From Escherichia phage EPFV3-03/2025: a stretch of DNA of 64,000 nt. Within the stretch, counting starts at the first letter, position 1; each line of letters begins with the position of its first letter. Positions 1 to 13,337 of the stretch are shown here, piece after piece. The stretch lies in sequence record PV435126.1; one strand, given 5' to 3'. Below the pieces are notes generated by a model. The model worked only from the letters and a program-made list of their open reading frames with translations, searched no databases and was not told the origin of the DNA. Made by a program: the position numbers and the translations under genes.

Positions 1-717
1 ATGGCTACGCTTTATAGTGATATATTGATGGACCCACAGACAGGTGATTTGGCGATAGACAAAGGTCTTGAGTTGATAGACTCGAACCAAGTAAGTCTGC
101 GCCAGCGCCTGTGGATGAGGTTTAATACCTGGAAAGGGAGCTGGTACTTTGACGAGTTGTTTGGCTTCCCTTATATGGACTTTCTTAGTAAGAAGGTCAT
201 GAAGACTGTTCTTGATAACAAGATTATGGAAGTGGCAAGACAAGAGCCGGATGTGCTAAACATCATAAACTTCCAATCTACTATGGATCGAAGATCGAGA
301 ACATATCAAGCGTTCTTTGAGGTTGTTACCAAGGAGAACGAGATTGTAAGACTTGCTTTCGTAGGTCTTGATCAGTTTACCTATCCACAGCCTGATGCTG
401 GGACAACCTCTCTCTGTGATGATGAAGGTTGGATTAAGTGGGCTAATAAACTGTACTACCTGATCAACTTCAGATTGCCTAGAACCGGGGATGCCACATG
501 GTGGAACCAGTATGCTGGTCCTGAGATGGAAAACCCGATCCCTGTAGGCTCTCTGTTGACTCAGGATAAAGATCTGCTGATGACTGAGGCAGAACAAACC
601 ATTAACCGCAATACCTGGACGCTTGCTCCAGATGAGCGCGAATACTCTGGTGTTATTGCTACCTCCAATGATGAGGCTATTGCCAACCAGTCTGGTCGTG
701 CTATCGATGTTAACTAA
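1..717 (+). CDS. putative baseplate/tail structural protein
   Basis: 238-aa ORF from the track, ATG at window position 1 (may be the true start or coincidence). N-terminal motif LRQRLWMRFNTWKGSWYFDELFGFPY is reminiscent of baseplate wedge-type proteins; recalled resemblance only. Confidence 0.4.
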   Translation: MATLYSDILMDPQTGDLAIDKGLELIDSNQVSLRQRLWMRFNTWKGSWYFDELFGFPYMDFLSKKVMKTVLDNKIMEVARQEPDVLNIINFQSTMDRRSRTYQAFFEVVTKENEIVRLAFVGLDQFTYPQPDAGTTSLCDDEGWIKWANKLYYLINFRLPRTGDATWWNQYAGPEMENPIPVGSLLTQDKDLLMTEAEQTINRNTWTLAPDEREYSGVIATSNDEAIANQSGRAIDVN

Positions 718-726
718 GGAGAAATC

Positions 727-1395
727 ATGGCTGTAGCTTATCCTACAATACCAATTCCAGATCTTGAAGATGCAGAAACAGTCCTGAGTGATGACTTCTT
801 GGTTGTCAATCAGACTGATGGGACAAGAAAGGCTAAGATTGACGATGTTGTCAACGATCTCAGCATTACTAAAATAGTCTATTTCACAGAGGGCGGTTAT
901 CTTAAGAGCAAGAAGGACTTTGCTTATGACCCAGAGACCAAGCGCTACTACACGTGGAACGGGGACTATCCTAAAATAATCCTCCCAGACTCCACTGTAG
1001 AGGGTGCTGGGGGTGTGTCTGCAAAAGCCTGGTCTGTTTTTGGTGAGCTTGCTGCAACTTCTTCTGGCAGAATAGTTGACTACGGATCTATTGGTGGTCA
1101 GCTTGATATGGATCTTGAAGTTGCTGACACTTTTAAAGTTCGACTAACTTCAAATACCACAATCTCTTTTGAAAATCAAACAGAAGGTCTTGAAGGGGTG
1201 GCGAGAACTATAACCGTATGCATTACTCAGACCTCTGGCGGTAACAAAGTCTATTGGCCTGATAATGTTAAATGGGCATACGGAAGAGATCCTATCCTAA
1301 CATTTACAGCTGGTGCAACAGATATTTTCAAGTTAGAAACCTACGACAACGGGTTAACTTGGTACGGGGCACTGATTATAGCAGGAGCTATCTAA
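727..1395 (+). CDS. tail fiber/tailspike N-terminal anchor-domain protein
   Basis: 222-aa ORF. Its N-terminus (DDFLVVNQTDGTRKAKIDDVV...FTEGGYL...DFAY...AW) is clearly homologous to the N-terminus of the 4030-7830 fiber. RBS-like GGAGAAA upstream. Confidence 0.6.
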   Translation: MAVAYPTIPIPDLEDAETVLSDDFLVVNQTDGTRKAKIDDVVNDLSITKIVYFTEGGYLKSKKDFAYDPETKRYYTWNGDYPKIILPDSTVEGAGGVSAKAWSVFGELAATSSGRIVDYGSIGGQLDMDLEVADTFKVRLTSNTTISFENQTEGLEGVARTITVCITQTSGGNKVYWPDNVKWAYGRDPILTFTAGATDIFKLETYDNGLTWYGALIIAGAI

Positions 1396-1396
1396 G

Positions 1397-3994
1397 ATGC
1401 GTATTCAACACAACATTGATAACGTATTTCAGATGATTGAGGGGCACAGGAAGTGCCTCGATAACAACACAGGAATTACCAATCTCCCTACGCAGAACAA
1501 GCTGGTAAACCAGGATGGACTTATAGCGTCAGGTTGGTCAGGGAGTAAGATAAGTAATGATTGGGCAATGCATGAAGCTCAGGCTGTGTTGATTCTGGGG
1601 TACATTGAGGCATATAGGGCATCAAAAAGCGATTTTTATCTAGATAGGGCCAAAGAAGCTTGGGAAGCCTACAACAGTCATCTTCTGGGTGCATATGCAG
1701 TAGAAAGTAAAATGCAAAGATTGTCCCACTACCCATTATCCACAGATGGAGTTCCATCACATGGTGGGTTTAAAGATGTAGTGGTGTCTTTTACCAACGG
1801 TAGAGGAAAAATCCCAGCTGGATCTCCTACATGGGGTGAATACCTAGACAAGGCATTCCAAGCGTATAACGGTGTGCTAGGAAGAAACACTGTAGACTCT
1901 GATGTCTACGGCGGCACAGATGCTAACCCAAATTGGACAACATCTGGATTAAGTTGGTGGGTTGAGTGGTATATAGCATGGGATGGTAACCGCTATTGGG
2001 CCAACGGTAGCATAGCCGACAGTGGTCATACGTCTGTAGAGTTCGGCACAATCCAACTGCAGGACAAGGGTGTTACAGGCAGCCACAAGGTAACCTACTG
2101 TGTGAGATTGCCACAAGAGCAGGGTGGATCGGTGATACCTGCTGGATCCCCTGTAATTGTAAATCCTATAAATGTGGTTGCAGATAATCAAGCCCCAGAG
2201 TTGGACGGGGAGGAAATGTGGTGTGACGCTTGTTATCAACTCTACACCTTGACAGGTGAGGAAAAGTATTACACAGCGTTCAAGCAGTCTTACAACAAGC
2301 TGCTTAATTTCAGCGATATAAATGCCTACGACAAACTGTTTAGAAAGACCACGTTAATTAAGGCACCGTTCACAGATGGTACTTGTCTCGTCGCAGGAAC
2401 AGTTCCTGTCATGAGCAGGGACAGTGACGGGTATATCAATTTTAGAATGAACGCACGTCAGCCTTGCGAAATAATTCAAAAAGGGACTACATACAAGATA
2501 GGCAGAGATGCTGAAATTGTTATGAATTTCGGAGGAGAAGGGGTTCTGTTCCAGCCACACTTCATCCTTAATGATGGCAACAATAACAAAAAACAGTATA
2601 GGATAGGTGTCCCTTTTGGAGGGGCAGAGGTAACAGAGACAGTTGCCAAGGTTACTGATTTCGTAGAGGTGGTAGGTAAAGATGGTAACCCGTATCTCTT
2701 ACCAAAAGAGGAAAACATTGTCGTAAGCGGTGGCGCTAGTGTTAGTATGCAGTACGATACCGACATTTATAACCACTCAGACAACTTCACCCGTTGCAAC
2801 ATAGCAAGGGGCAAGGTAACTTTCAATTTTGGAAGAGAGATTTCTTTAAACTCAGTAACTTATCGATCAGATGATGAGATGATAAGGGTCAAATTTCTTG
2901 ACAAAGACCGTTGGTTATGGTATGCTGATCTATATGCCACTAACGGGCAATGGATAACAGAAACTCTTACCCTGGGCGATTTTAAATTAGACCCAACACA
3001 ACCTCATCACACAGAAGATGAGATTAAACCTTTCTTTGCTAATCCTAAGGGGCTCACCTCTGTAGATTTCAGCCTAAGCGACAGGCAGATAGGCAATGGC
3101 TTGTTCGATCTGTATTGCGTCAATACGCTGCCGCAATTTTATGTTGCAGATAGAGATGCTTATCTGATCTGGTTTAGTGTATGGATGGCAAGCAAGACAG
3201 AATCAACAGCCAAGGTTGGTGATTGCTATGTCAGAAACTACAAGCAAGGCGCATACAGACACACTCCTGGTGTGTTACCTGCTGGAAAGGTAATAGATAA
3301 GGAAAATTATCTTCTGGAAGAAAAGCCAAATTGGCCCTATCCTGGCATGCAGTATCCGGTAGTCTACTGTATGGGTGCGGAAAACATAGATCGTCAAAGA
3401 TTGGCAAATACAATTGGATTTATGTACGACTCCCAAGTTTGGTATAATAACACATTTAAAACAGAAGGACCAGTTGCATCTCGCTACGTATGGCAGAGGG
3501 GTAATGAGGGGTTGACTGGTTGGTGGGAGATGGTAGATAACTCTAAACTACAATCAAGAGCCTTTGTTGCTGCGTGCCGCACACTATATGAGCTTAAGAA
3601 ACATAAAGAACCTGTTGATGAAAGACTGTTCCTGTTCTGCCAGAAATGGGCATGGTTCCTCAACAGATTCCAGTCATCTCATTCCGGAAATCTCCCTACA
3701 GACTTTAATACCTCCGGTGGATATTCTTATCAGGACAGAGGGGACAGAATGTGGGTGGTAGGTGAATGGCTTGCAGGTTGCTGCTGGCTGGGTCTTTGCG
3801 GGTATTCAGAGACAATACCCCAAATAGATATTGTTGTAGAAGCCTGTGTGAAGTTACTGCAAAAGCACCACTTCATTAACGGGGACAATGTTTTAAACGG
3901 CTGCTGGGCAGTCTCTGATCCGGTGGGCTATCACTCTGGCGAAATCCTTCGCGGTCTAGGCCTTTATGCTCAATACCGTGGATTGTACCTTTAA
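1397..3994 (+). CDS. large structural protein, possible distal tailspike/receptor-binding module
   Basis: 865-aa ORF starting 2 nt after the stop of the anchor-domain ORF; sits in the tail-fiber cluster. No recognisable catalytic motif. Confidence 0.5.
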   Translation: MRIQHNIDNVFQMIEGHRKCLDNNTGITNLPTQNKLVNQDGLIASGWSGSKISNDWAMHEAQAVLILGYIEAYRASKSDFYLDRAKEAWEAYNSHLLGAYAVESKMQRLSHYPLSTDGVPSHGGFKDVVVSFTNGRGKIPAGSPTWGEYLDKAFQAYNGVLGRNTVDSDVYGGTDANPNWTTSGLSWWVEWYIAWDGNRYWANGSIADSGHTSVEFGTIQLQDKGVTGSHKVTYCVRLPQEQGGSVIPAGSPVIVNPINVVADNQAPELDGEEMWCDACYQLYTLTGEEKYYTAFKQSYNKLLNFSDINAYDKLFRKTTLIKAPFTDGTCLVAGTVPVMSRDSDGYINFRMNARQPCEIIQKGTTYKIGRDAEIVMNFGGEGVLFQPHFILNDGNNNKKQYRIGVPFGGAEVTETVAKVTDFVEVVGKDGNPYLLPKEENIVVSGGASVSMQYDTDIYNHSDNFTRCNIARGKVTFNFGREISLNSVTYRSDDEMIRVKFLDKDRWLWYADLYATNGQWITETLTLGDFKLDPTQPHHTEDEIKPFFANPKGLTSVDFSLSDRQIGNGLFDLYCVNTLPQFYVADRDAYLIWFSVWMASKTESTAKVGDCYVRNYKQGAYRHTPGVLPAGKVIDKENYLLEEKPNWPYPGMQYPVVYCMGAENIDRQRLANTIGFMYDSQVWYNNTFKTEGPVASRYVWQRGNEGLTGWWEMVDNSKLQSRAFVAACRTLYELKKHKEPVDERLFLFCQKWAWFLNRFQSSHSGNLPTDFNTSGGYSYQDRGDRMWVVGEWLAGCCWLGLCGYSETIPQIDIVVEACVKLLQKHHFINGDNVLNGCWAVSDPVGYHSGEILRGLGLYAQYRGLYL

Positions 3995-4029
3995 CATAGG
4001 GGGCTGTTTGCCCCCTTTCAGGAGAAAGA

Positions 4030-7000
4030 ATGGCTGATATTAAAGTTGTCAGAATTGAATCTCTTCCTGCCACTACTGCAGTGACAGAGGATGATTACCT
4101 GGTTGTTCAACAACCAGACCTGACCCGTCGTGTAAAAATTGGCGATGTTGTCCATATAGATGGGACTGTTTCTCATGTAATCTCCTTTAAGGAAGGTGGT
4201 AAGTTAAACGGCCCAATGGATTTTGCCTACTTCGAAGAGGAAGACCTCTACCTGCGTTGGAAAGGCGAATTTCCACACACTGTTCCTGCACTATCTTCAC
4301 CATACGCTGATGGTGGGATTACCGATGCTGCATGGATGGTATATACAGACCCTTCCTTGAGAGAGGAGCTGGAGTCTACCATTGGCGCATCTATGATCAT
4401 GACAGCCGAAGGGCAGTCTGTACAGGATGTAATGGATGTTACTGTTCAGACAGCCAACGATGCCAAAGCACTTGCACAGCGGGTAGATTTTGGTACAGTG
4501 CATACTGTAGGTGATGTTATTCACCTTGTCAACTTTGTTGGTCCTGCAGTTATTGAAGAGGGAAGAACTACTAACTACCCTTCTGAAGCAGCTGGTGAAA
4601 AATTTCTGAACGGTGTGGTATCTCGTCGTGATACTACAACTGTTGATGGTATTTTCCGTGGCGCTACCTCCGGAGCCATGTATACCATTGCAGTAACCAA
4701 TGGTGTGGCAACAACAAAAAGAATAGCACTTCGTGATGAATTTAAGCGCCTGGAGGCAAACAACCCAACAAGAACAGTTATCCGTGCCGGGGATGATTTA
4801 AACACGGCGGGGTACTTGCAGCTTGATGCAACAGGCCGTTGGGGTATGTGGAACCAGCAAACAGCTTCGTGGCAACCTCTTGCTATAGAGCAAGGCGGTA
4901 CAGGAGCCAGAGATGCCGCTGGAGTCCGTATCAATATCGGTGCTTTCTATAAGCAACGTGCAGCCCTTGAGGCAAATTTCAATATCAATAACTTGACTGG
5001 TAATCAGGACGGCATATACTATCAACCGATGACTGCTAATGCAACTGAGGCAAATGGTTATCCTGCAGGTTCTGGTGCTGGTCACTTGATTGTTTGGCAG
5101 AACAATGCTAACGGTGGCACAGGCTGTCGTCAGGAATACTATCCATTCTCTAACGTGGATGTTTGGTATTTGAGAACCTATCAGGCCAACACAAACCAAT
5201 GGACTGCATGGCAGCCGATGGTCAGACCTCGGAATGATGACACCTTCAGATCTCATATCGGCCTTGGTAAAAACAACTCCCCTGCTTTCGGGAACCTTTA
5301 CTTAGCTCAATACTCAGGAGATGTTAAAAATGCTTCAGGTATTCTCCATGGAGATAAATATGACGCTGATGGTGTTCTTGAGCACGGTTATAGGATCTAC
5401 TCAGAAGTAAGAAACGACAATAAGGCTTGGTTAACAATCCACCTTCACAAAGGCGCAAAAGGATCTGAAACTCATAGGTATTTAGGCTTCCGTGAGGATG
5501 GGGTATTAGACTGTCCTAAATACATGCAGGTTGGGGATCTTACTGGTCAGCTGACAAACTGGGGACTTGGAGAATGGATTCGTAGTTCAGGGGCAGAAAG
5601 AGGGTTCTGGGGTTCCAAGAAAGCTGCTAAGATGGTCGTCTGGGATGGAGGGATGGATGAGTCCGGTAACGGCACTTTGGAATGGGGTGTTTATAACAAC
5701 CGGAAGGCCAAGTGGGAACCTTTACCTCACGCCGCAGGTGGTACTGGGGTTACAACTTTAGCAGAGGCTCAGAATCTGTTCAAAGTTCCTGCGGCTGCAG
5801 GTGTAAAAGATTTCTTAACACTGCCAAGAACCGCAGGGATGGAAGATGGGAAATATTACCCAATCATCGTTAGGACAGATCCGTACTATGCTCCGACCAC
5901 AGGGACAGATATCACCCTAGTTACCAGATCGTCATCTGGCGGTGACCCTATGAACTGTTCTACACTACAGTGCCACTATAGGACTGGCGGTTGGACAGAT
6001 AGAGGAGACTCTTTCTACGGGGTAGTAAATTTCTACCAAAATGAAAAAGCACTTCTTGGAATGGTTGCTCCAACAAGGGGTAAACAAGAGTATGTTGCTT
6101 TCTATGCAGAGGCGCGCGCTTTCCCTGTCAGCGTATACGCAAGTAGAAATGTTGTCGAAGTGTTTACCAGAGAACAAGATTACCAAGTCGGCCCTGTAAC
6201 AGATAATCAGGATGGTGTTAAGTTTGTTGCACCTCTCCAGTCAGCTGACTTGAATCTTGCTGTTCTTGGAGATAACATTACTAACACCAGGCCTATTGTT
6301 GACTTCAAAGGCACCTCTGGGTTCTACACTGGTGGCGGCACACAGTGGCACTATATAGGCACTGCTGAACGCTATGCTGTGATGAGCAAAATGAATATGC
6401 CAAAAGTCGAGCTGTGGGCAGACGGTATTGACTATTTGTGCTACGGCAGTCCTAGAAAGGCATTATTCTCTAACGCTGGATTCCAGTGTGCATCGGACGG
6501 AACAGAGGATCTAACTAACGGCACGTTTACCTCTAAATGCGGTAATGGCGCTGGCCTTAAAGGCCAAGCAGAGTTCAGGTCTACTCCAGAAGCTGGTCAA
6601 GTTATTGTTCGAGATGTTGTGGGAACAGCTCATAGATTCTACAACTTCAACAAAGATGGTACTTTCTCAGCCCCAGGTGGTTTTGTATGCCATACTGGTG
6701 GAGACTGGAACAACCAGTTCGGGCCCAATAACCCGTCAAAAATAATGGCTGGCAACGTCAACGGACCAGAAGGTTCGATGGTTGTTGGTGGACTGTCTGT
6801 GGCTTTTTCTGGGAACTATGCTTTCCAAATGGCTGGTCGCCTTGATCAGTTATACACCAGGTCTATCGAGGGTGGTAACCATAGAGCGTGGAACAAGGTC
6901 ATACAACACAGAGGGCAAGGTCTGGGGGTTAATGACCTTAACGACTATAAAGGGGATAGGGAAGGTTTTTATCATCAGGAGGCCAATGCTCAAGCCACAC

Positions 7001-7830
7001 CTGATAGAAACTACCCATGCTCCCGAGCAGGTACGCTTATAGTGTATAGGAACTACGCCAATGTTCCAGAGAGTTGCGTACAGGAGTATATATCATATCT
7101 TGGGGAAAAATTCCTGCGTTATGGAACAACAATAGGTAGTGTTTTCACATGGGGACCTTGGCAGCAGCTTGGTGGTAAGGGAATTACTCTTAAAACCGCA
7201 GGCTCCAATCTTGACCCGGAGTTCATGATACATACAGGTGGCGGGACTGATGTTACCAACACTTCCAACATGCCTTCTAATACAGGCAGGATGTACTACT
7301 GGGGTAATGGCGCAGACAGGAAGAACGTGCTTGAGTTCCAGATAAACGACAACGCTACATCTGCCAGTTGGGTATGGCATTGTGGTGCTAAGACAGATGA
7401 GGCCAAGTCAAGGTACCTTGCTGTCAACGGCGTAGTAGAGTGCACCGCTGTCAGCCAGAGCTCTGACCGTGACCTGAAGGATAACATAGAGGTTATTCCT
7501 AACGCGCTGGAAGCTATCCGTAAGATGAAGGGCTATACCTACACTCTAAAAGAGAATGGTATGCCTCACGCGGGGGTAATTGCTCAAGAGGTCATGGAAG
7601 CATTACCTGAAGCTGTTGGCTCTTTCGTGAAAAGGAAAGAGGTTCCTGGTCCTACTCAAGATGGTATTCCTCTGATGACCGAGGAAAGATTCTATAATGT
7701 TGACTATGCGGCTGTAACAGGATTGCTTGTTCAGGTTTGCAGAGAACAAGATGATAGAATAACCTCCCTTGAGGAACAGGTTAAAAAACTAACAGAGGTT
7801 GTTACCGAGTTACAAGGAAAATTGAAGTAA
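4030..7830 (+). CDS. tail fiber protein with C-terminal intramolecular chaperone (peptidase S74-like) domain
   Basis: 1266-aa ORF. N-terminal anchor domain shared with 727-1395. C-terminal SSDRDLKDNIEVIPNALEAIRKMKGYTYTLKENG...HAGVIAQEV...VDY matches the autoproteolytic chaperone domain of endosialidase/L-shaped fibers. RBS GGAGAAAG upstream; terminator downstream. Confidence 0.8.
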   Translation: MADIKVVRIESLPATTAVTEDDYLVVQQPDLTRRVKIGDVVHIDGTVSHVISFKEGGKLNGPMDFAYFEEEDLYLRWKGEFPHTVPALSSPYADGGITDAAWMVYTDPSLREELESTIGASMIMTAEGQSVQDVMDVTVQTANDAKALAQRVDFGTVHTVGDVIHLVNFVGPAVIEEGRTTNYPSEAAGEKFLNGVVSRRDTTTVDGIFRGATSGAMYTIAVTNGVATTKRIALRDEFKRLEANNPTRTVIRAGDDLNTAGYLQLDATGRWGMWNQQTASWQPLAIEQGGTGARDAAGVRINIGAFYKQRAALEANFNINNLTGNQDGIYYQPMTANATEANGYPAGSGAGHLIVWQNNANGGTGCRQEYYPFSNVDVWYLRTYQANTNQWTAWQPMVRPRNDDTFRSHIGLGKNNSPAFGNLYLAQYSGDVKNASGILHGDKYDADGVLEHGYRIYSEVRNDNKAWLTIHLHKGAKGSETHRYLGFREDGVLDCPKYMQVGDLTGQLTNWGLGEWIRSSGAERGFWGSKKAAKMVVWDGGMDESGNGTLEWGVYNNRKAKWEPLPHAAGGTGVTTLAEAQNLFKVPAAAGVKDFLTLPRTAGMEDGKYYPIIVRTDPYYAPTTGTDITLVTRSSSGGDPMNCSTLQCHYRTGGWTDRGDSFYGVVNFYQNEKALLGMVAPTRGKQEYVAFYAEARAFPVSVYASRNVVEVFTREQDYQVGPVTDNQDGVKFVAPLQSADLNLAVLGDNITNTRPIVDFKGTSGFYTGGGTQWHYIGTAERYAVMSKMNMPKVELWADGIDYLCYGSPRKALFSNAGFQCASDGTEDLTNGTFTSKCGNGAGLKGQAEFRSTPEAGQVIVRDVVGTAHRFYNFNKDGTFSAPGGFVCHTGGDWNNQFGPNNPSKIMAGNVNGPEGSMVVGGLSVAFSGNYAFQMAGRLDQLYTRSIEGGNHRAWNKVIQHRGQGLGVNDLNDYKGDREGFYHQEANAQATPDRNYPCSRAGTLIVYRNYANVPESCVQEYISYLGEKFLRYGTTIGSVFTWGPWQQLGGKGITLKTAGSNLDPEFMIHTGGGTDVTNTSNMPSNTGRMYYWGNGADRKNVLEFQINDNATSASWVWHCGAKTDEAKSRYLAVNGVVECTAVSQSSDRDLKDNIEVIPNALEAIRKMKGYTYTLKENGMPHAGVIAQEVMEALPEAVGSFVKRKEVPGPTQDGIPLMTEERFYNVDYAAVTGLLVQVCREQDDRITSLEEQVKKLTEVVTELQGKLK

Positions 7831-7837
7831 CTGTTTT

Positions 7838-7866
7838 GCCCTCGCTTCGGCGGGGGCTTTTTGTTT
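7838..7866 (+). terminator. rho-independent terminator (GCCCTCGC-TTCG-GCGGGGGC + T-run)
   Basis: GC stem with UUCG tetraloop followed by TTTTTGTTT, immediately after the fiber stop codon. Confidence 0.7.
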
Positions 7867-7869
7867 GTA

Positions 7870-7898
7870 TTGCGTATTAACTTAAAATCTGGTAAAAT
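7870..7898 (+). promoter_or_regulatory. sigma70-like promoter with extended -10 (TTGCGT-17-TGGTAAAAT)
   Basis: -35-like TTGCGT, 17-nt spacer, TGG-TAAAAT; same architecture recurs near 13381. Confidence 0.4.
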
Positions 7899-7929
7899 AA
7901 CTATCATATTTGTTTAACCTGGAGGCACA

Positions 7930-8520
7930 ATGTTTTTATGGGAAAGGCCTAGATACCTCCCAGATATTAGATTGGAGTTACTGGCAGACATCGTTACATT
8001 TAAAAGCCCGTTTACAGGTAAGACGCAAAAAGTCACCTATGCCACTCCTAACTGGAAAGGCACTTTGACGGTTTCCAATATCAGCGAGTCTCAGTTGTTG
8101 GAGCTCAAAAGCTTTGTTGATCAGGTTTACAAAGATGGGAACATTTTTCTTATCAAGGCTTATGGGCATTCAGTTACCTCCAACGAGCCAATCGCTCTCG
8201 GACCGACTGGTAACGACGATTTTTTGAAGACGGTTGGTTGGGAGCCTAACAGGGATATAGCCAGAGCTGGGGATAAAATATCTGTCAATGATGAGTTGAA
8301 AGTGGTGACAGCCTCAGTACGAAGCGATGGTGTTGGGGCTGCTGTTATAAACATATCTCCAAGACTTAGGAAACCTATTGCCGCAGGGGATACCATGAAG
8401 ATAATAACTCAATCTCCGAAGGGTAGATTTCATATCAGAGATCTTTATAAAATTAAGCAAAAGGTTGATGCTATGCAGAAAGGTGACAATATAGTTATCA
8501 ACTTCTTTGAGGATTTCTAA
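7930..8520 (+). CDS. hypothetical structural protein
   Basis: 196-aa ORF with RBS GGAGG 6 nt upstream. Confidence 0.5.
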   Translation: MFLWERPRYLPDIRLELLADIVTFKSPFTGKTQKVTYATPNWKGTLTVSNISESQLLELKSFVDQVYKDGNIFLIKAYGHSVTSNEPIALGPTGNDDFLKTVGWEPNRDIARAGDKISVNDELKVVTASVRSDGVGAAVINISPRLRKPIAAGDTMKIITQSPKGRFHIRDLYKIKQKVDAMQKGDNIVINFFEDF

Positions 8521-9073
8521 GATGATAAGAGCGCCATTAGATAATTTATTTCTTGAAAAGCTAGAGCTTGATGGTGTTGAGATCTTAATTGCTGCAAAGC
8601 TAGAGCTGCCAACAGGTACTGTCAGGGTGTGCTCAGGAACTGGTGTTGTAGTGATTGAGGGTCAACATTTCATAGGGATAGGTGGATCAGCAACATTGAC
8701 TGCTGTGTCTGAGAAAGATGCCACCAACTTCGGATCTGTGGTAGCAACATTGAACGGGTTTGATCCCAAGTATGTAGGTGATCTTCTGAAGACTGAGTAT
8801 TCTGGTTGCCGTGCCACGTTGTATATCACCGCTATGGAGAATGGTTTACCTGTTACAACTAATGGCTTGTTTGACGGCCTTATAACAGACATGGCTATTC
8901 AGACAGGGGAGAATAGCGCTCTGTCCATATCCATCTCTTCTATCTTCAACAGTTGGTTAAGAGGTTTTCCTTATCGATACACAGAGGAAAGCCATAGCTC
9001 AAGAAACGATAATGACAGATTTTTTAAATATGTGGATCAGGTGGCAAGCCGCCCGATCATTTGGGAGGTTTAA
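8507..9073 (+). CDS. hypothetical structural protein
   Basis: 188-aa ORF; track start overlaps the previous gene, true start may be the in-frame ATG near 8522. Confidence 0.5.
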   Translation: MRISKMIRAPLDNLFLEKLELDGVEILIAAKLELPTGTVRVCSGTGVVVIEGQHFIGIGGSATLTAVSEKDATNFGSVVATLNGFDPKYVGDLLKTEYSGCRATLYITAMENGLPVTTNGLFDGLITDMAIQTGENSALSISISSIFNSWLRGFPYRYTEESHSSRNDNDRFFKYVDQVASRPIIWEV

Positions 9074-9498
9074 TGAGCACACATCCTCGTTTAGTAGACT
9101 GGCAAGAAAGGTTGTGGAAAGTATTTGACGAAGAAGCCACCGTCCCGTTTGAATGGGGATTCCACGATTGTTGCACTTTTGCGGCTAAATGTGTTGATGC
9201 CCAATACGGAACAGATTTTCTTTCTAACTTTGAAGGAACGTATAAAACAGAGTTGGAAAGCAAGAGATGGTGCATGCTCCGTTTCAAAACTACACACCTA
9301 CCTACTATTTTTGATCTCTTTTTGACTAGACTGGATACTCCTAAGCAGATTCAGCGTGGTGATATTGTTATTTTCGAAGGTCTGAACGGCCTCACGGCTG
9401 GTGTGTTCTGGAACAACCAGATTTGGGCGAAAGGTGATAAAGGGATCTTTACGTTCGATATGAAAGATTCTATCGTTGTTGATGTCTGGAGGTATTAA
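9073..9498 (+). CDS. hypothetical protein
   Basis: Track ORF 9061-9498; internal ATG near 9073 (MSTHPRL) follows GGGAGG and is the more likely start. Confidence 0.45.
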   Translation: MSTHPRLVDWQERLWKVFDEEATVPFEWGFHDCCTFAAKCVDAQYGTDFLSNFEGTYKTELESKRWCMLRFKTTHLPTIFDLFLTRLDTPKQIQRGDIVIFEGLNGLTAGVFWNNQIWAKGDKGIFTFDMKDSIVVDVWRY

Positions 9499-12400
9499 TG
9501 CCAATTGCAATGATTGAAAACATCGTTGCTTCTGCAAGATCTTCAAGCTATGACTGGAACGCATCCAAGGCAGCTCTGGCTGACAGCCTGAACACTGTTA
9601 CCACCAGAACCCTGGATAAGATTTTCGAGGGCAACAAATCTTACAGAAGTCAGCAAGATAGACAAAAGCTTCTCAGATCTTCTGCTGCACCTTGCTCTGT
9701 AGTGTATGGGAAGACACGCACATCTGGATTGCTTGCGTTTTTGGAGCAGGACAGGGACAGAACTCTTCATTGTGCTATTGTTCTTGCCAATCACCCTCTG
9801 GAAGGTATAGAAGATATACTTATAGACGGTAATCCTATTTCCTCGTATGGAGATTTGGTATCGTGGGAGCTACATAACGACAGAAAAACCTCTGATCCTT
9901 TCATGGGCACACACTGCCCATCGTGGTCACCGGACATGATAGGTAGAGGGATCAGTTGGCTACGGGTCAGCTTCAGGTTTGACCCTAACAAGTTTCCTTT
10001 TGGGTTGCCAAACGTCACACTTGTCAAGGTTGGTAAAAAATGTTATGATCCTCGCACCAGTAAAGAGGTATATACCAATAACGCTGCCTTGGTGATTTTG
10101 GACTATTTAAGAACGTACCTTAGATGTCCTGACGAAACCATCAACTGGGATTCCTTCAAGGAAGCTGCCAACATATGTGACGAGGCTGTAAGAAACGCAG
10201 ACGGAACCAGTGAGCGTCGTTACACTATTAATGGTGAGTTCGACATGGATGAAGCACCAGCAAGTATTATGGCAGAAATGCTGAAAGCTTGTGGTGCAGA
10301 TCTTAGCTATGTAGCTGGTAAATATGGTCTGCTGGTAGGTGCATACTATGGCCCAGCAACAATGACACTGAGCGAGGACTGTGTTTGTGGTGAGGTTAAG
10401 ATCTATCCGGAAGCCTCCTTCGACAAAAGATCGAACACAATAACTGGCAGATTCACCAGTCCAACCAAAGGGTATTCTGAAACAGACTTCCCATCGGTGT
10501 TCGTACCTGAGTGGGTAGAGAAGGATGGAGAAAGAAAGATAATTGATATAGATTATCGTTTTGTTACCAGTCCTTATCAGGCTCAGCGTGTTTCCGCAAT
10601 ATTCTTAAGACGTGCCAGAGCTGGCAGGATTATTGAAGTAACCTGCAATATGCGGGGTTTTAAATTTAAGCCTGGGCGTTACGTTACGATGGACCTTCCA
10701 AGTATTGGTATAGTGGGCCAAGAAATGAGGGTTCTTGAATGGGAGTTCACCAAAAAGGGCGGTGTCAAGGTAAAACTCCGTCAAGATGCTAAAGAGTGGA
10801 ATGATGCCACAGGGCAACTTCCAGACTCTGGAGATGTAAATATTCCGATATCTCCATCTGGTGTAGCTCAACCGCAAAACTTCAGATACTCTGTTCTTCA
10901 AGCTGGGGAAGTGACGCACGGTGTTTTGGCTTGGGACAACGTTGGGACTTATGCTCAAAACATTGTGCAGGTAAGAAAGAACGGAGAGATTATTTGGACA
11001 GCACAAACAGTCGAACAGTTTGTCCGCGTAGAGGGATTGACCAAAGGGTCATACACAGCAACCGTGGTTGCAACATCTTATAAAGGTGGGGTATCTCCAG
11101 AAGCGTACTGCGAGTTTAACATTCAGGCACCTGAAGCTCCGGTTTCTGTAGAAGTTAAGCAGGGATACTTTGCTATCACCTTGATTCCGCACAGTAGGGA
11201 CTTAGCAAGTGTAAGCACCCAGTATGACTTTTGGACATCTGGTATGACAAGGTTGCCTGACACAAGTGATGCAACCGTCACTTCAAAAGCCACCCGCATG
11301 GGTGTTGGTTCAACTTGGACATCTGAAGGTCTGCAGAACGATAAGATTTATTATTGGTATATTCGAACCACAAACGCTTTTGGTAGCTCCCAGTTTGTAG
11401 AATGCGCTGCACGCTGCTACACCTCTATTGAAGATTTGATGCCTCAAATAGATGCGGAATTTAAAAAGACAGAGACTTATAAAGAGTTGATGAGCACTTT
11501 AGATTCCTCTATTGAAGAGGTTGAAAATCGTGTCACAGAACTTAACAAGTACATGGACGGAAGGGTAGATGAGGCATTCCAACAACTTGGGGATAGGATA
11601 GGTGCGGTAGTTACAGAGACAACTCAGAAGTTTGAGGATGTCAATGGCAATATCGCAGCGCTGGATAATAAACTTGTTGCTGCACAGAACAAGTTCACCA
11701 ACGATCTGAACACTGAAAGTGGAAGACTGGCATCCCTGATTGAGACAACCAATAAAGCAACCACTGATCTTCTGAACAAAAAGACAGAGGCTTTGGACGA
11801 GAAATTGGTTGCAGCCAAAGGGGAGTTGGTAGAACAAATAAGTGGTGTGGAGAGCGGATACCTTGCTGGAGATAAAACTCTAGATGGCAAGATCAATACC
11901 CAGAGAACGGAACTTGATGCAAGCATCTTAAGCACCAACCAGGCGACAGTGGATCTTCTCAACAGGACCTCTGAAACTCTGGATCAAAAGATCAGTCAGA
12001 CAAACGCGACAGTATCTAAGAACTATACCACCCTTGATGGTAAGATAACTACCGCAAAAACTGATCTCAATACCCTGATTGCCAATACCAACAAGGCCAC
12101 CACAGATTTGTTGAATCAGAAAACCTCCGCACTGTCGGAGCAGATAACTTCTGCACGTGGGGAGATTTCTACCAACAAACAGGCGATTGCGGATTTGGAT
12201 GGTAAGCTGACCTCCACAAAAACAGCACTGGACGCTACAATCTCCGATACCAACAAAGCAACTGTGGATCTTATTAACGGCACAGCGTCAGCTATTCGTC
12301 AAGAACTTGCTGTTGCTAAGCAGGAGATCATTGATGATGTTGGGGATGTATCAGAGCTAAGAGCTGCAGTGGCTACAACATCTAAGGCTGTGACCGACTT

Positions 12401-13337
12401 AGAGGGCAAAGTAAATGCTCAATGGGGCACAAAAATACAGGTAGACTCTGCAGGGAATAAGTATGTGGCAGGTATCCAATTGGGCATGGAAGGCTCTGGA
12501 GGCCAAGTTCAATCATACTTCATGGTTAGTGCAAACAACTTTGCGGTATACAACCCTGGAAATGGAACAGCAACCCTTGCTTTCGCAATCAAGAACAACC
12601 AAGCGTTCTTGAAAGATGCTTTTATAGAGAACGGGACGATCTCTTCTGCCAAGATTGCACAAGAAATTTCGTCTAACAACTACGATGGCAACGGGTACCA
12701 CAAATACGGTTGGTATATTAACAAGAACGGGCACGCCCAGTTTATGGATGTGTGGGTGAAAGGTAACATCAACGCTAGTGCAGGTAACTTCACAGGGGCA
12801 GTTAACGCTACCAGTGGCACCTTCCGTGGAGATGTTTATGCCAATAATGGTAGCTTTAGAGGCACCATAGATGCAACAGGAGGTACATTCCGTGGACGTG
12901 TAGAAGCTTCCGTTATCCGTGCTAACCAGTTCGAAGGTGCAATCGTTGCACATAGGACCTATGGTGACTGTTCTCCGGTATATAACTCGCAGCAGAGGGT
13001 TTGCCGTTGGAGGTGGAGATATGTGGACAACGTTTCAGGACAAGGTAAGAACGTAACATTCTTCTTTAAACTAAACGGAACCTTGGCTAGCTCCCAGCTT
13101 AACGTTTGGATAGCCGGACATCAAATCCTTGCAGGTAAGAAGTACGGAAACGACAACAACGGTATGTGTGCGGTAGGGATAACGGGTCTTGGTGAACAAA
13201 CCATAGACATTGTCGTTGAGATATACACACCATGGTCAACGTCAAGCGTGACAGGAGTTACAATATCTTGTCCAACCGTAATAGTTAGTCGTTCAAACTC
13301 TAGCTTCCAAGGACCTTGGAACGAGTCTCACGACTAA
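9498..13337 (+). CDS. tail tip / host-specificity protein (lambda J-like N-terminus, FN3-like domain, coiled-coil repeats)
   Basis: 1279-aa ORF. N-terminal region resembles J-type tip-attachment proteins; FN3-like segment; four or more tandem ~40-aa repeats (TNKATTDLLNKKTEALDEKLVAAKGEL...); C-terminal GNFTG/GTFRG/GSFRG repeats. Confidence 0.6.
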   Translation: MPIAMIENIVASARSSSYDWNASKAALADSLNTVTTRTLDKIFEGNKSYRSQQDRQKLLRSSAAPCSVVYGKTRTSGLLAFLEQDRDRTLHCAIVLANHPLEGIEDILIDGNPISSYGDLVSWELHNDRKTSDPFMGTHCPSWSPDMIGRGISWLRVSFRFDPNKFPFGLPNVTLVKVGKKCYDPRTSKEVYTNNAALVILDYLRTYLRCPDETINWDSFKEAANICDEAVRNADGTSERRYTINGEFDMDEAPASIMAEMLKACGADLSYVAGKYGLLVGAYYGPATMTLSEDCVCGEVKIYPEASFDKRSNTITGRFTSPTKGYSETDFPSVFVPEWVEKDGERKIIDIDYRFVTSPYQAQRVSAIFLRRARAGRIIEVTCNMRGFKFKPGRYVTMDLPSIGIVGQEMRVLEWEFTKKGGVKVKLRQDAKEWNDATGQLPDSGDVNIPISPSGVAQPQNFRYSVLQAGEVTHGVLAWDNVGTYAQNIVQVRKNGEIIWTAQTVEQFVRVEGLTKGSYTATVVATSYKGGVSPEAYCEFNIQAPEAPVSVEVKQGYFAITLIPHSRDLASVSTQYDFWTSGMTRLPDTSDATVTSKATRMGVGSTWTSEGLQNDKIYYWYIRTTNAFGSSQFVECAARCYTSIEDLMPQIDAEFKKTETYKELMSTLDSSIEEVENRVTELNKYMDGRVDEAFQQLGDRIGAVVTETTQKFEDVNGNIAALDNKLVAAQNKFTNDLNTESGRLASLIETTNKATTDLLNKKTEALDEKLVAAKGELVEQISGVESGYLAGDKTLDGKINTQRTELDASILSTNQATVDLLNRTSETLDQKISQTNATVSKNYTTLDGKITTAKTDLNTLIANTNKATTDLLNQKTSALSEQITSARGEISTNKQAIADLDGKLTSTKTALDATISDTNKATVDLINGTASAIRQELAVAKQEIIDDVGDVSELRAAVATTSKAVTDLEGKVNAQWGTKIQVDSAGNKYVAGIQLGMEGSGGQVQSYFMVSANNFAVYNPGNGTATLAFAIKNNQAFLKDAFIENGTISSAKIAQEISSNNYDGNGYHKYGWYINKNGHAQFMDVWVKGNINASAGNFTGAVNATSGTFRGDVYANNGSFRGTIDATGGTFRGRVEASVIRANQFEGAIVAHRTYGDCSPVYNSQQRVCRWRWRYVDNVSGQGKNVTFFFKLNGTLASSQLNVWIAGHQILAGKKYGNDNNGMCAVGITGLGEQTIDIVVEIYTPWSTSSVTGVTISCPTVIVSRSNSSFQGPWNESHD

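Follow-up and report, generated by a model that had tools for sequence, protein, structure and literature searches.

Branched receptor-binding apparatuses that carry several receptor-binding proteins and are mounted through adaptors are already known, for instance in CBA120, G7C, K1-5/SP6 and phi92. In phi92, fibre II is unassigned and gp141 is not among the listed fibre II candidates (PMC13450770), and the genes that build each lateral fibre in such phages are described as still unclear (PMC8594841). Here we analysed a related locus in a 64,000-nucleotide (nt) stretch of Escherichia phage EPFV3-03/2025 (sequence record PV435126.1), referred to as the window, in which three consecutive genes encode a small protein of 222 amino acids (aa), a large protein of 865 aa and a long tail fibre of 1266 aa. 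All three are already in GenBank. We consider it probable that these genes specify two distinct arms of the lateral apparatus for receptor binding, one in which the small protein acts as an adaptor for a large, presumably glycan-directed body, and another formed by the 1266-aa fibre. The features on which the argument draws are as follows.

727-1395, + strand: open reading frame (ORF) for the small tail protein (proposed adaptor), 222 aa; homologue of phi92 gp140, Bas58 bas58_0025 and FV3_00043
1397-3994, + strand: large protein gene, 865 aa; homologue of phi92 gp141, Bas58 bas58_0026 and FV3_00042
4030-7830, + strand: long lateral tail fibre gene, 1266 aa; identified by PF18668, PF13884, PHROG 6578 (1742 bits) and PDB matches
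727-1056, + strand: anchor module of the small protein, aa 1-110, made up of a leader motif (~aa 8-45) and Tail_spike_N (aa 51-104, nt 877-1038)
4030-4359, + strand: anchor module of the 1266-aa fibre, aa 1-110, with Tail_spike_N at aa 50-103 (nt 4177-4338)
1063-1392, + strand: C-terminal ~110-aa beta-sandwich domain of the small protein (C-domain), aa 113-222; proposed docking platform for the large protein
1383-1399, + strand: coupling junction of the small and large genes, with AGGAG at 1383-1387, TAA at 1393-1395, G at 1396 and ATG at 1397-1399

The 222-aa and 1266-aa proteins begin with the same module, as the initial annotation had claimed. BLASTP aligned them over 99 aa (aa 8-105 against aa 7-105) with 38% identity and 55% positives (E=2e-18), and when the N-terminal 110 aa of either protein were searched with phmmer against all stop-to-stop ORFs of the window, the sole match was the other protein (E=2e-17 and 1e-18). 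Both proteins also scored above the gathering cutoff of 25 bits for Pfam family PF18668 (Tail_spike_N, the TSP1/Gp66 N-terminal domain), with 40.5 bits for the 222-aa protein and 38.8 bits for the 1266-aa protein. The homologous region consists of the ~45-aa leader motif and the ~55-aa Tail_spike_N fold and ends at about aa 106-110. Its sequence matches in the PDB were the N-terminal regions of the tailspikes 9occ_G, 8x8m and CBA120 TSP1, TSP3 and TSP4. Both products are accordingly tail-fibre-type structural proteins with a common N-terminal module found in many solved tailspikes, and their proposed place in a multi-fibre receptor-binding apparatus fits the Vequintavirus group, which is already known for several lateral fibres. 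Because the two anchors are homologous (38% identity), it is plausible that both arms sit in equivalent or paralogous sockets, either on the baseplate periphery or on another fibre. The same anchor was present in the Seunavirus GAP31, where it is borne by GAP31_223 (712 aa; L004, 12462-14600), directly after the large gene (E=6e-20). The order of anchored small gene, large gene and anchored fibre thus recurs with a different fibre body, which suggests that pairing of the small and large genes with a second fibre of the same anchor is a recurring design.

The small and large genes abut or overlap in each of the following groups, which include unrelated phage families (lengths are given for the small and the large protein, respectively).

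phi92-like phages, JohannJBalmer: 157 and 958 aa
Seunavirus, GAP31: 223 and 929 aa
Kolesnikvirus, phiEa21-4 gp71/gp72: 244 and 1157 aa
Rosemountvirus, KE24: 207 and 985 aa
Seoulvirus, SPFM13: 157 and 1005 aa
Pseudomonas siphophage PSA28 (after gpJ): 260 and 1000 aa
Burkholderia prophage (L009): 473 and 911 aa
Aeromonas prophage (L012): 229 and 938 aa
Metagenomic phage (L011): 107 and 1633 aa

This distribution points to an ancient, widespread two-gene unit and not to a broken gene. The locus studied here has the layout of that unit, a small gene ending in the C-domain followed by a large homologue that aligns from its first residues. By tblastn, 536 phage records contained the small protein and 526 the large one, and the genus profiles of the two sets were the same. 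When IMG/VR was scanned with the alignment of the large protein, 78 loci were returned, of which 5 were truncated upstream, 10 were fused and 63 were evaluable and non-fused. In every one of these 63, an ORF with a C-domain at its extreme C-terminus lay directly upstream of the large gene. The N-terminal parts of the 63 small proteins fell into 15 unrelated clusters, and across lineages the small proteins had only their last ~100 aa in common. The alignment of the large proteins began at residue 2-10, ran to their ends and showed many invariant positions. In the 10 fused loci, which have no small gene, the large protein carried an N-terminal P2 gpI baseplate domain; Pfam, which was run in one of them (L040), identified this domain as that of the baseplate wedge protein family Tail_P2_I (E=5e-52). 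In Goslar gp92, the same large-protein body matches the family profile at E=1e-270 and is preceded by a DUF7941 module, which is baseplate-anchored and filament-forming according to the Goslar authors. These cis fusions to Tail_P2_I and DUF7941 indicate that the large protein has its N-terminus on the side of the virion. The N-terminal extension of gp92 was also considered as a fused copy of the C-domain and was rejected, as hmmsearch --max gave no similarity and the paper identifies it as DUF7941. Neither the 150 top-ranking C-domain representatives nor the 78 loci from IMG/VR contained a Rosetta-stone fusion of a small to a large protein. Divergence of the C-domain co-varied with that of the large protein (Mantel r=0.80, reached in 0 of 2000 permutations), a correlation that reflects co-inheritance and is by itself no proof of contact. 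Homologues of both proteins have been detected in virions by mass spectrometry, namely Gp190 and Gp191 in phage Arash, and gp16 and gp17 in phage S144.

Two variants of the unit were observed in addition. In Rosemountvirus (KE24; L006, 4725-8305) and Loughboroughvirus (S144 ORF16/17), the pair lies between the head-tail connector and sheath genes, outside the baseplate cluster, and the small protein has an alanine-rich, coiled-coil-like N-terminus; this placement hints at mounting on the neck or collar. In four metagenomic phages from IMG/VR and Logan (L011, L064, L081 and L085), the large homologue is 1612-1633 aa long and its partner is a bare C-domain of 107 aa. The additional length of the large homologue lies in ~700 aa at its C-terminus, the last part of which is a Gly_rich_2 domain; a barrel protein of this type may serve as a hub to which another fibre is attached.

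The initial annotation regarded the whole 222-aa ORF as an anchor, which holds for its N-terminal half; the C-terminal half is a separate, widespread domain and the hallmark partner of the large protein. Residues Q168, W177, W183, P189, D199, D207, G209, T211, W212 and G214 of this C-domain are invariant across unrelated phages. No Pfam family matched the domain. The AlphaFold2 (AF2) model shows it as a beta-sandwich with a predicted local distance difference test (pLDDT) score of ~75-85. Matches to the C-domain were found in 14,358 cluster representatives at E<=1e-3, mostly at the extreme C-terminus, and some proteins contained 2-5 copies. Its structural neighbours were weak and comprised the Pa223 capsid spike (9ny6_C, E=5.7e-4), an N-terminal fragment of CBA120 TSP4 and a depolymerase. 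As a comparison with XD branching domains of the CBA120/T4 gp10 type, which bind other tailspikes, Foldseek matched the TSP4 fragment of residues 1-335 (7rej) to the small protein at E=3e-3 but with a template modelling score of 0.18-0.20, for a model with a poorly modelled N-terminal half. Word-indexed homologue searches had returned only 4, 16 and 6 matches. Structure prediction consequently relied on shallow alignments, and the 222-aa model was unusable in its N-terminal half. A homologue of the small protein is labelled in GenBank as a sialidase domain protein; this label was not supported, since there was no match to a sialidase in Pfam or NCBIfam and Foldseek returned only 25-column fragments with E>=5.

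The 865-aa protein was modelled as an (α/α)6 barrel interrupted by ~280 aa of beta-sandwich domains, a fold that suggests a glycan-binding or glycan-processing body with a putative enzymatic activity and substrate. Neither the protein nor its family profile had a sequence match in the PDB, the protein had no match in Pfam, and NCBIfam had no match for any of the proteins. The family has many invariant D, E, W and Y residues.

From these observations we propose the following mechanism. In the first arm, the N-terminal ~105 aa of the 222-aa adaptor would bind the virion and its C-terminal ~110-aa beta-sandwich would hold the N-terminus of the 865-aa protein; direct binding between the two, with indirect support from the gene linkage, the co-divergence (r=0.80) and the replacement of the small gene by cis-fused anchors, and the site of docking are both inferred. 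The variable N-terminus of the small protein would suit the local socket on the virion, and the constant C-domain would carry the large protein, which may act on or bind a conserved surface glycan. The gene pair is widely distributed, which argues for a glycan target that is conserved and not strain-specific. In the second arm, the 1266-aa fibre would carry the anchor in cis and is predicted to mature via a C-terminal S74 chaperone domain. A small anchor ORF followed by a large distal ORF, the logic already put forward in the initial annotation, is the best reading of the data. More tentatively, the C-domain could be a general plug that mounts a gp141-type (α/α)6 body on almost any tailed-phage chassis by exchange of the adaptor N-terminus, a proposal that we favour less than the arrangement of the two arms itself. 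At least 15 adaptor types were counted, along with the cis fusions to P2 gpI or DUF7941. If the C-domain is such a plug, the gp140-gp141 complex would be a candidate for the unassigned lateral densities in phi92-like and rV5-like baseplates.

Several observations weigh against the proposed adaptor. AlphaFold3 models of phi92 gp140 misfit the unassigned fibre II density (PMC13450770), and no solved structure in the PDB contains the 222-aa or the 865-aa protein. The AF2 model of the small protein had a mean pLDDT of 52.6 with its N-terminal half unmodelled, and that of the large protein was moderate (mean pLDDT 66.6), with an (α/α)6 barrel that could also be a non-catalytic binder or an epimerase. 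In solved tailspikes a further N-terminal segment precedes Tail_spike_N, and the real attachment element here may be either Tail_spike_N or the leader motif. Three of the small proteins in the IMG/VR set are bare C-domains without an anchor. The C-domain superfamily is also far larger than the gene pair (14,358 clusters), and the most distant member checked (P0016/L013) precedes an unrelated gene, so the C-domain is not exclusively a dock for the large protein.

In an unlikely alternative, the 222-aa protein would by itself form a complete short fibre or spike whose free distal tip, binding or decorative, is the C-domain; the 865-aa protein would be mounted on the baseplate independently, and their adjacency would reflect only co-inheritance within a structural operon. 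The extreme C-terminus, where the C-domain is found in many fibre-like proteins, is the usual place of a tip, the Pa223 capsid spike is among the best structural neighbours of the small-protein model, and distant members of the C-domain family are not followed by the large protein. However, tips are normally variable and anchors conserved, and the small protein shows the reverse. The linkage in 63 of 63 loci and the abutting or overlapping cistrons extend across unrelated virion types, and the large protein itself lacks an N-terminal anchor except where one is fused in cis, in which case the small gene is absent. Still less probable is a role of the small protein mainly in the assembly of the large protein, or as its chaperone, with no stable attachment to the virion. 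Genes for tail fibre chaperones often lie beside those of their clients, and the tight translational coupling, the small size and the existence of bare-C-domain versions would suit such a role. Chaperone genes, however, are normally placed downstream of the fibre genes that they serve, the small protein has at its N-terminus a structural tailspike module that a bona fide fibre has as well, and the detection of homologues in purified Arash and S144 virions argues against a pure chaperone.

Comparison of the junction between the small and large genes bears on whether they are one gene that was recently split. The junction reads GCAGGAGCTATC-TAA-G-ATG, with a single nucleotide (G1396) between the ORFs and the 865-aa ORF in the +1 frame. 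Such a 1-nt spacer and +1 frame are what a single-base insertion or deletion could yield, and the initial annotation had suggested a recent fission or frameshift of a single gene. In this view, a recent fission, an inactivating frameshift or a sequencing error would have divided one fibre gene into 727-1395 and 1397-3994. This explanation is refuted for practical purposes. The large gene has an AGGAG Shine-Dalgarno sequence of its own 9 nt 5′ of its ATG, and its frame is closed by a TAG at 1379-1381, five codons 5′ of the ATG, which argues against a single split gene. The junction is identical in FV3 and Bas58, where two genes are annotated, and each of the small and large proteins is present at full length with at least 95% identity in ~118 records (tblastn). 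Relative to Bas58, the small gene is 96.6% identical in nt and 98.7% in aa, and the large gene 92.1% in nt and 96.9% in aa; both genes are thus under purifying selection, which argues against fission or inactivation. Two ORFs occupied the region corresponding to 727-3994 in all relatives, with no single intact ORF in close relatives, and the split was found in every distant lineage sampled, across phage families. The absence of any small-large fusion from the 150 representatives and 78 loci described above points the same way.

Also extremely improbable is a programmed +1 frameshift at AUC-UAA-G, aided by AGGAG as in prfB, that would add a fused 222+865 polypeptide. The Shine-Dalgarno-like AGGAG lies a few nt 5′ of the stop codon, and this layout superficially resembles the prfB frameshift site. 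A tRNA-Ile would, however, have no slippery re-pairing from AUC to UCU. Stop and start codons abut or overlap at the junctions of L001-L006 and L012, and the frame relation varies: it is +1 here, -1 in TAATG overlaps and in-frame in L007 and L008, and L009 has two stops. Junction frames that differ in this way make a conserved recoding event unlikely, imply that a fused product would not be a conserved feature, and were the reason for rejecting a conserved recoding site at the junction. The simplest reading of the junction is termination-reinitiation coupling of the small and large cistrons, and a Shine-Dalgarno sequence inside the last codons of the small gene together with a 1-nt spacer would favour matched synthesis of the adaptor and the protein it carries. 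At the same junctions (L001-L006, L012), which include several distant lineages, GC(A/T)GGAG was observed to encode a conserved C-terminal Ala-Gly of the small protein, embedding the Shine-Dalgarno sequence of the large gene.

The 1266-aa fibre contains PF13884 (Peptidase_S74, an intramolecular chaperone of fibres and endosialidases) at aa 1145-1196 (nt 7462-7617), with a score of 60.8 bits against a gathering cutoff of 22 bits. Its counterparts are the S74-bearing fibres of class TC12 in Vequintavirinae, which have been fitted into low-resolution cryo-electron microscopy (cryo-EM) maps of Bas49 and Bas54 (PMC12143355). An internal repeat of ~80 aa was observed in this fibre by direct comparison of two segments, 4981-5220 and 6934-7170 (aa ~318-397 and ~969-1047; 34% identity, E=4e-12); self-BLAST of the whole protein did not report it. 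The second copy overlaps a weak PDB match to an R2 pyocin fibre (6ct8).

The window is a segment of an rV5/FV3-like E. coli myophage genome of the genus Vequintavirus. Positions 600-8000 were 95.8% identical to Escherichia phage FV3 over 7.4 kb, 115 Vequintavirus phage records covered at least 80% of this interval, and the near-identical DNA and gene order place the locus with the lateral-fibre loci of Bas58 and FV3. The 222-aa protein matched PHROG 7760 (tail fiber protein, E=6e-119) and was 100% identical in aa to its FV3 counterpart. The three ORFs sit in a baseplate and fibre gene cluster, in which wedge genes follow a Dit/J-like block in the relative Bas58, and are preceded by the following ORF.

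1-717: ORF of 238 aa, a baseplate protein in GenBank; occupies the position of the phi92 sheath-initiator gene gp139

Downstream of the 1266-aa fibre, positions 7930-13337 hold a block resembling a siphovirus tail tip within this myovirus baseplate cluster. It encodes a 196-aa Dit-like protein (PHROG 1302, distal tail protein), a 188-aa tail protein (PHROG 2048), a DUF6950 protein (PF22262) and a 1279-aa J-like protein (Phage_Tail_Tip, Ig_J). Both this block and the 1266-aa fibre are missing at the matching position in phi92-like (L003) and Seunavirus (L004) phages. In addition, 18-23 records of the MG0656xx series, named as Campylobacter phage with Campylobacter jejuni as host, were ~91% identical to the rV5-like region and mostly unannotated; their host label looks doubtful.

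In the searchable literature we found no description of the small and large genes as a unit, of the inverted conservation of the small protein or of the three alternative anchorings of the large body. Phages of the rV5-like and phi92-like groups are common, have broad host ranges and are candidates for therapy. If the small and large proteins are treated as one unit, with reuse of the anchor by the 1266-aa fibre, concrete hypotheses follow for the fitting of cryo-EM maps. For engineering, swapping the short N-terminal part of the adaptor might be enough to move a glycan-processing body from one phage to another.

The closest described counterparts of the pair are phi92 gp140 and gp141, which are direct homologues and likewise follow the sheath-initiator gene directly. 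The small protein of phi92-like phages aligns with aa 109-222 at 41% identity, and their large protein shares 35% identity over its full length. Of the leader motif, this 157-aa small protein retains the first ~40 aa, and it has no Tail_spike_N, unlike the 222-aa protein; neither the 1266-aa fibre nor the Dit/J-like block is present in these phages. The large body of Goslar gp92 and of the P2 gpI fusions is the same, but its anchor is fused in cis at the N-terminus and does not come from a second, small protein. Known (α/α)6 enzymes (AGE/cellobiose 2-epimerase, GH8, GH48, GH76, GH88 and GH105) are 8-15% identical to the large protein, which differs from them by the beta-sandwich insertion of ~280 aa in the barrel. 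The branched tailspikes of CBA120 (TSP1-4) and G7C (gp66/gp63.1) likewise join several receptor-binding proteins via N-terminal modules, and PF18668, which was defined on CBA120 TSP1 and G7C gp66, is present here too. Their adaptor (XD) domains are, however, part of large tailspikes, whereas here a dedicated 222-aa protein is proposed as the adaptor, and the protein it would carry is an (α/α)6 barrel and not a beta-helix. The podophages K1-5, K1E and SP6 differ in virion type and enzyme fold, but in them a small tail-attached adaptor carries an enzymatic receptor-binding protein non-covalently, as we propose for the 222-aa and 865-aa proteins.

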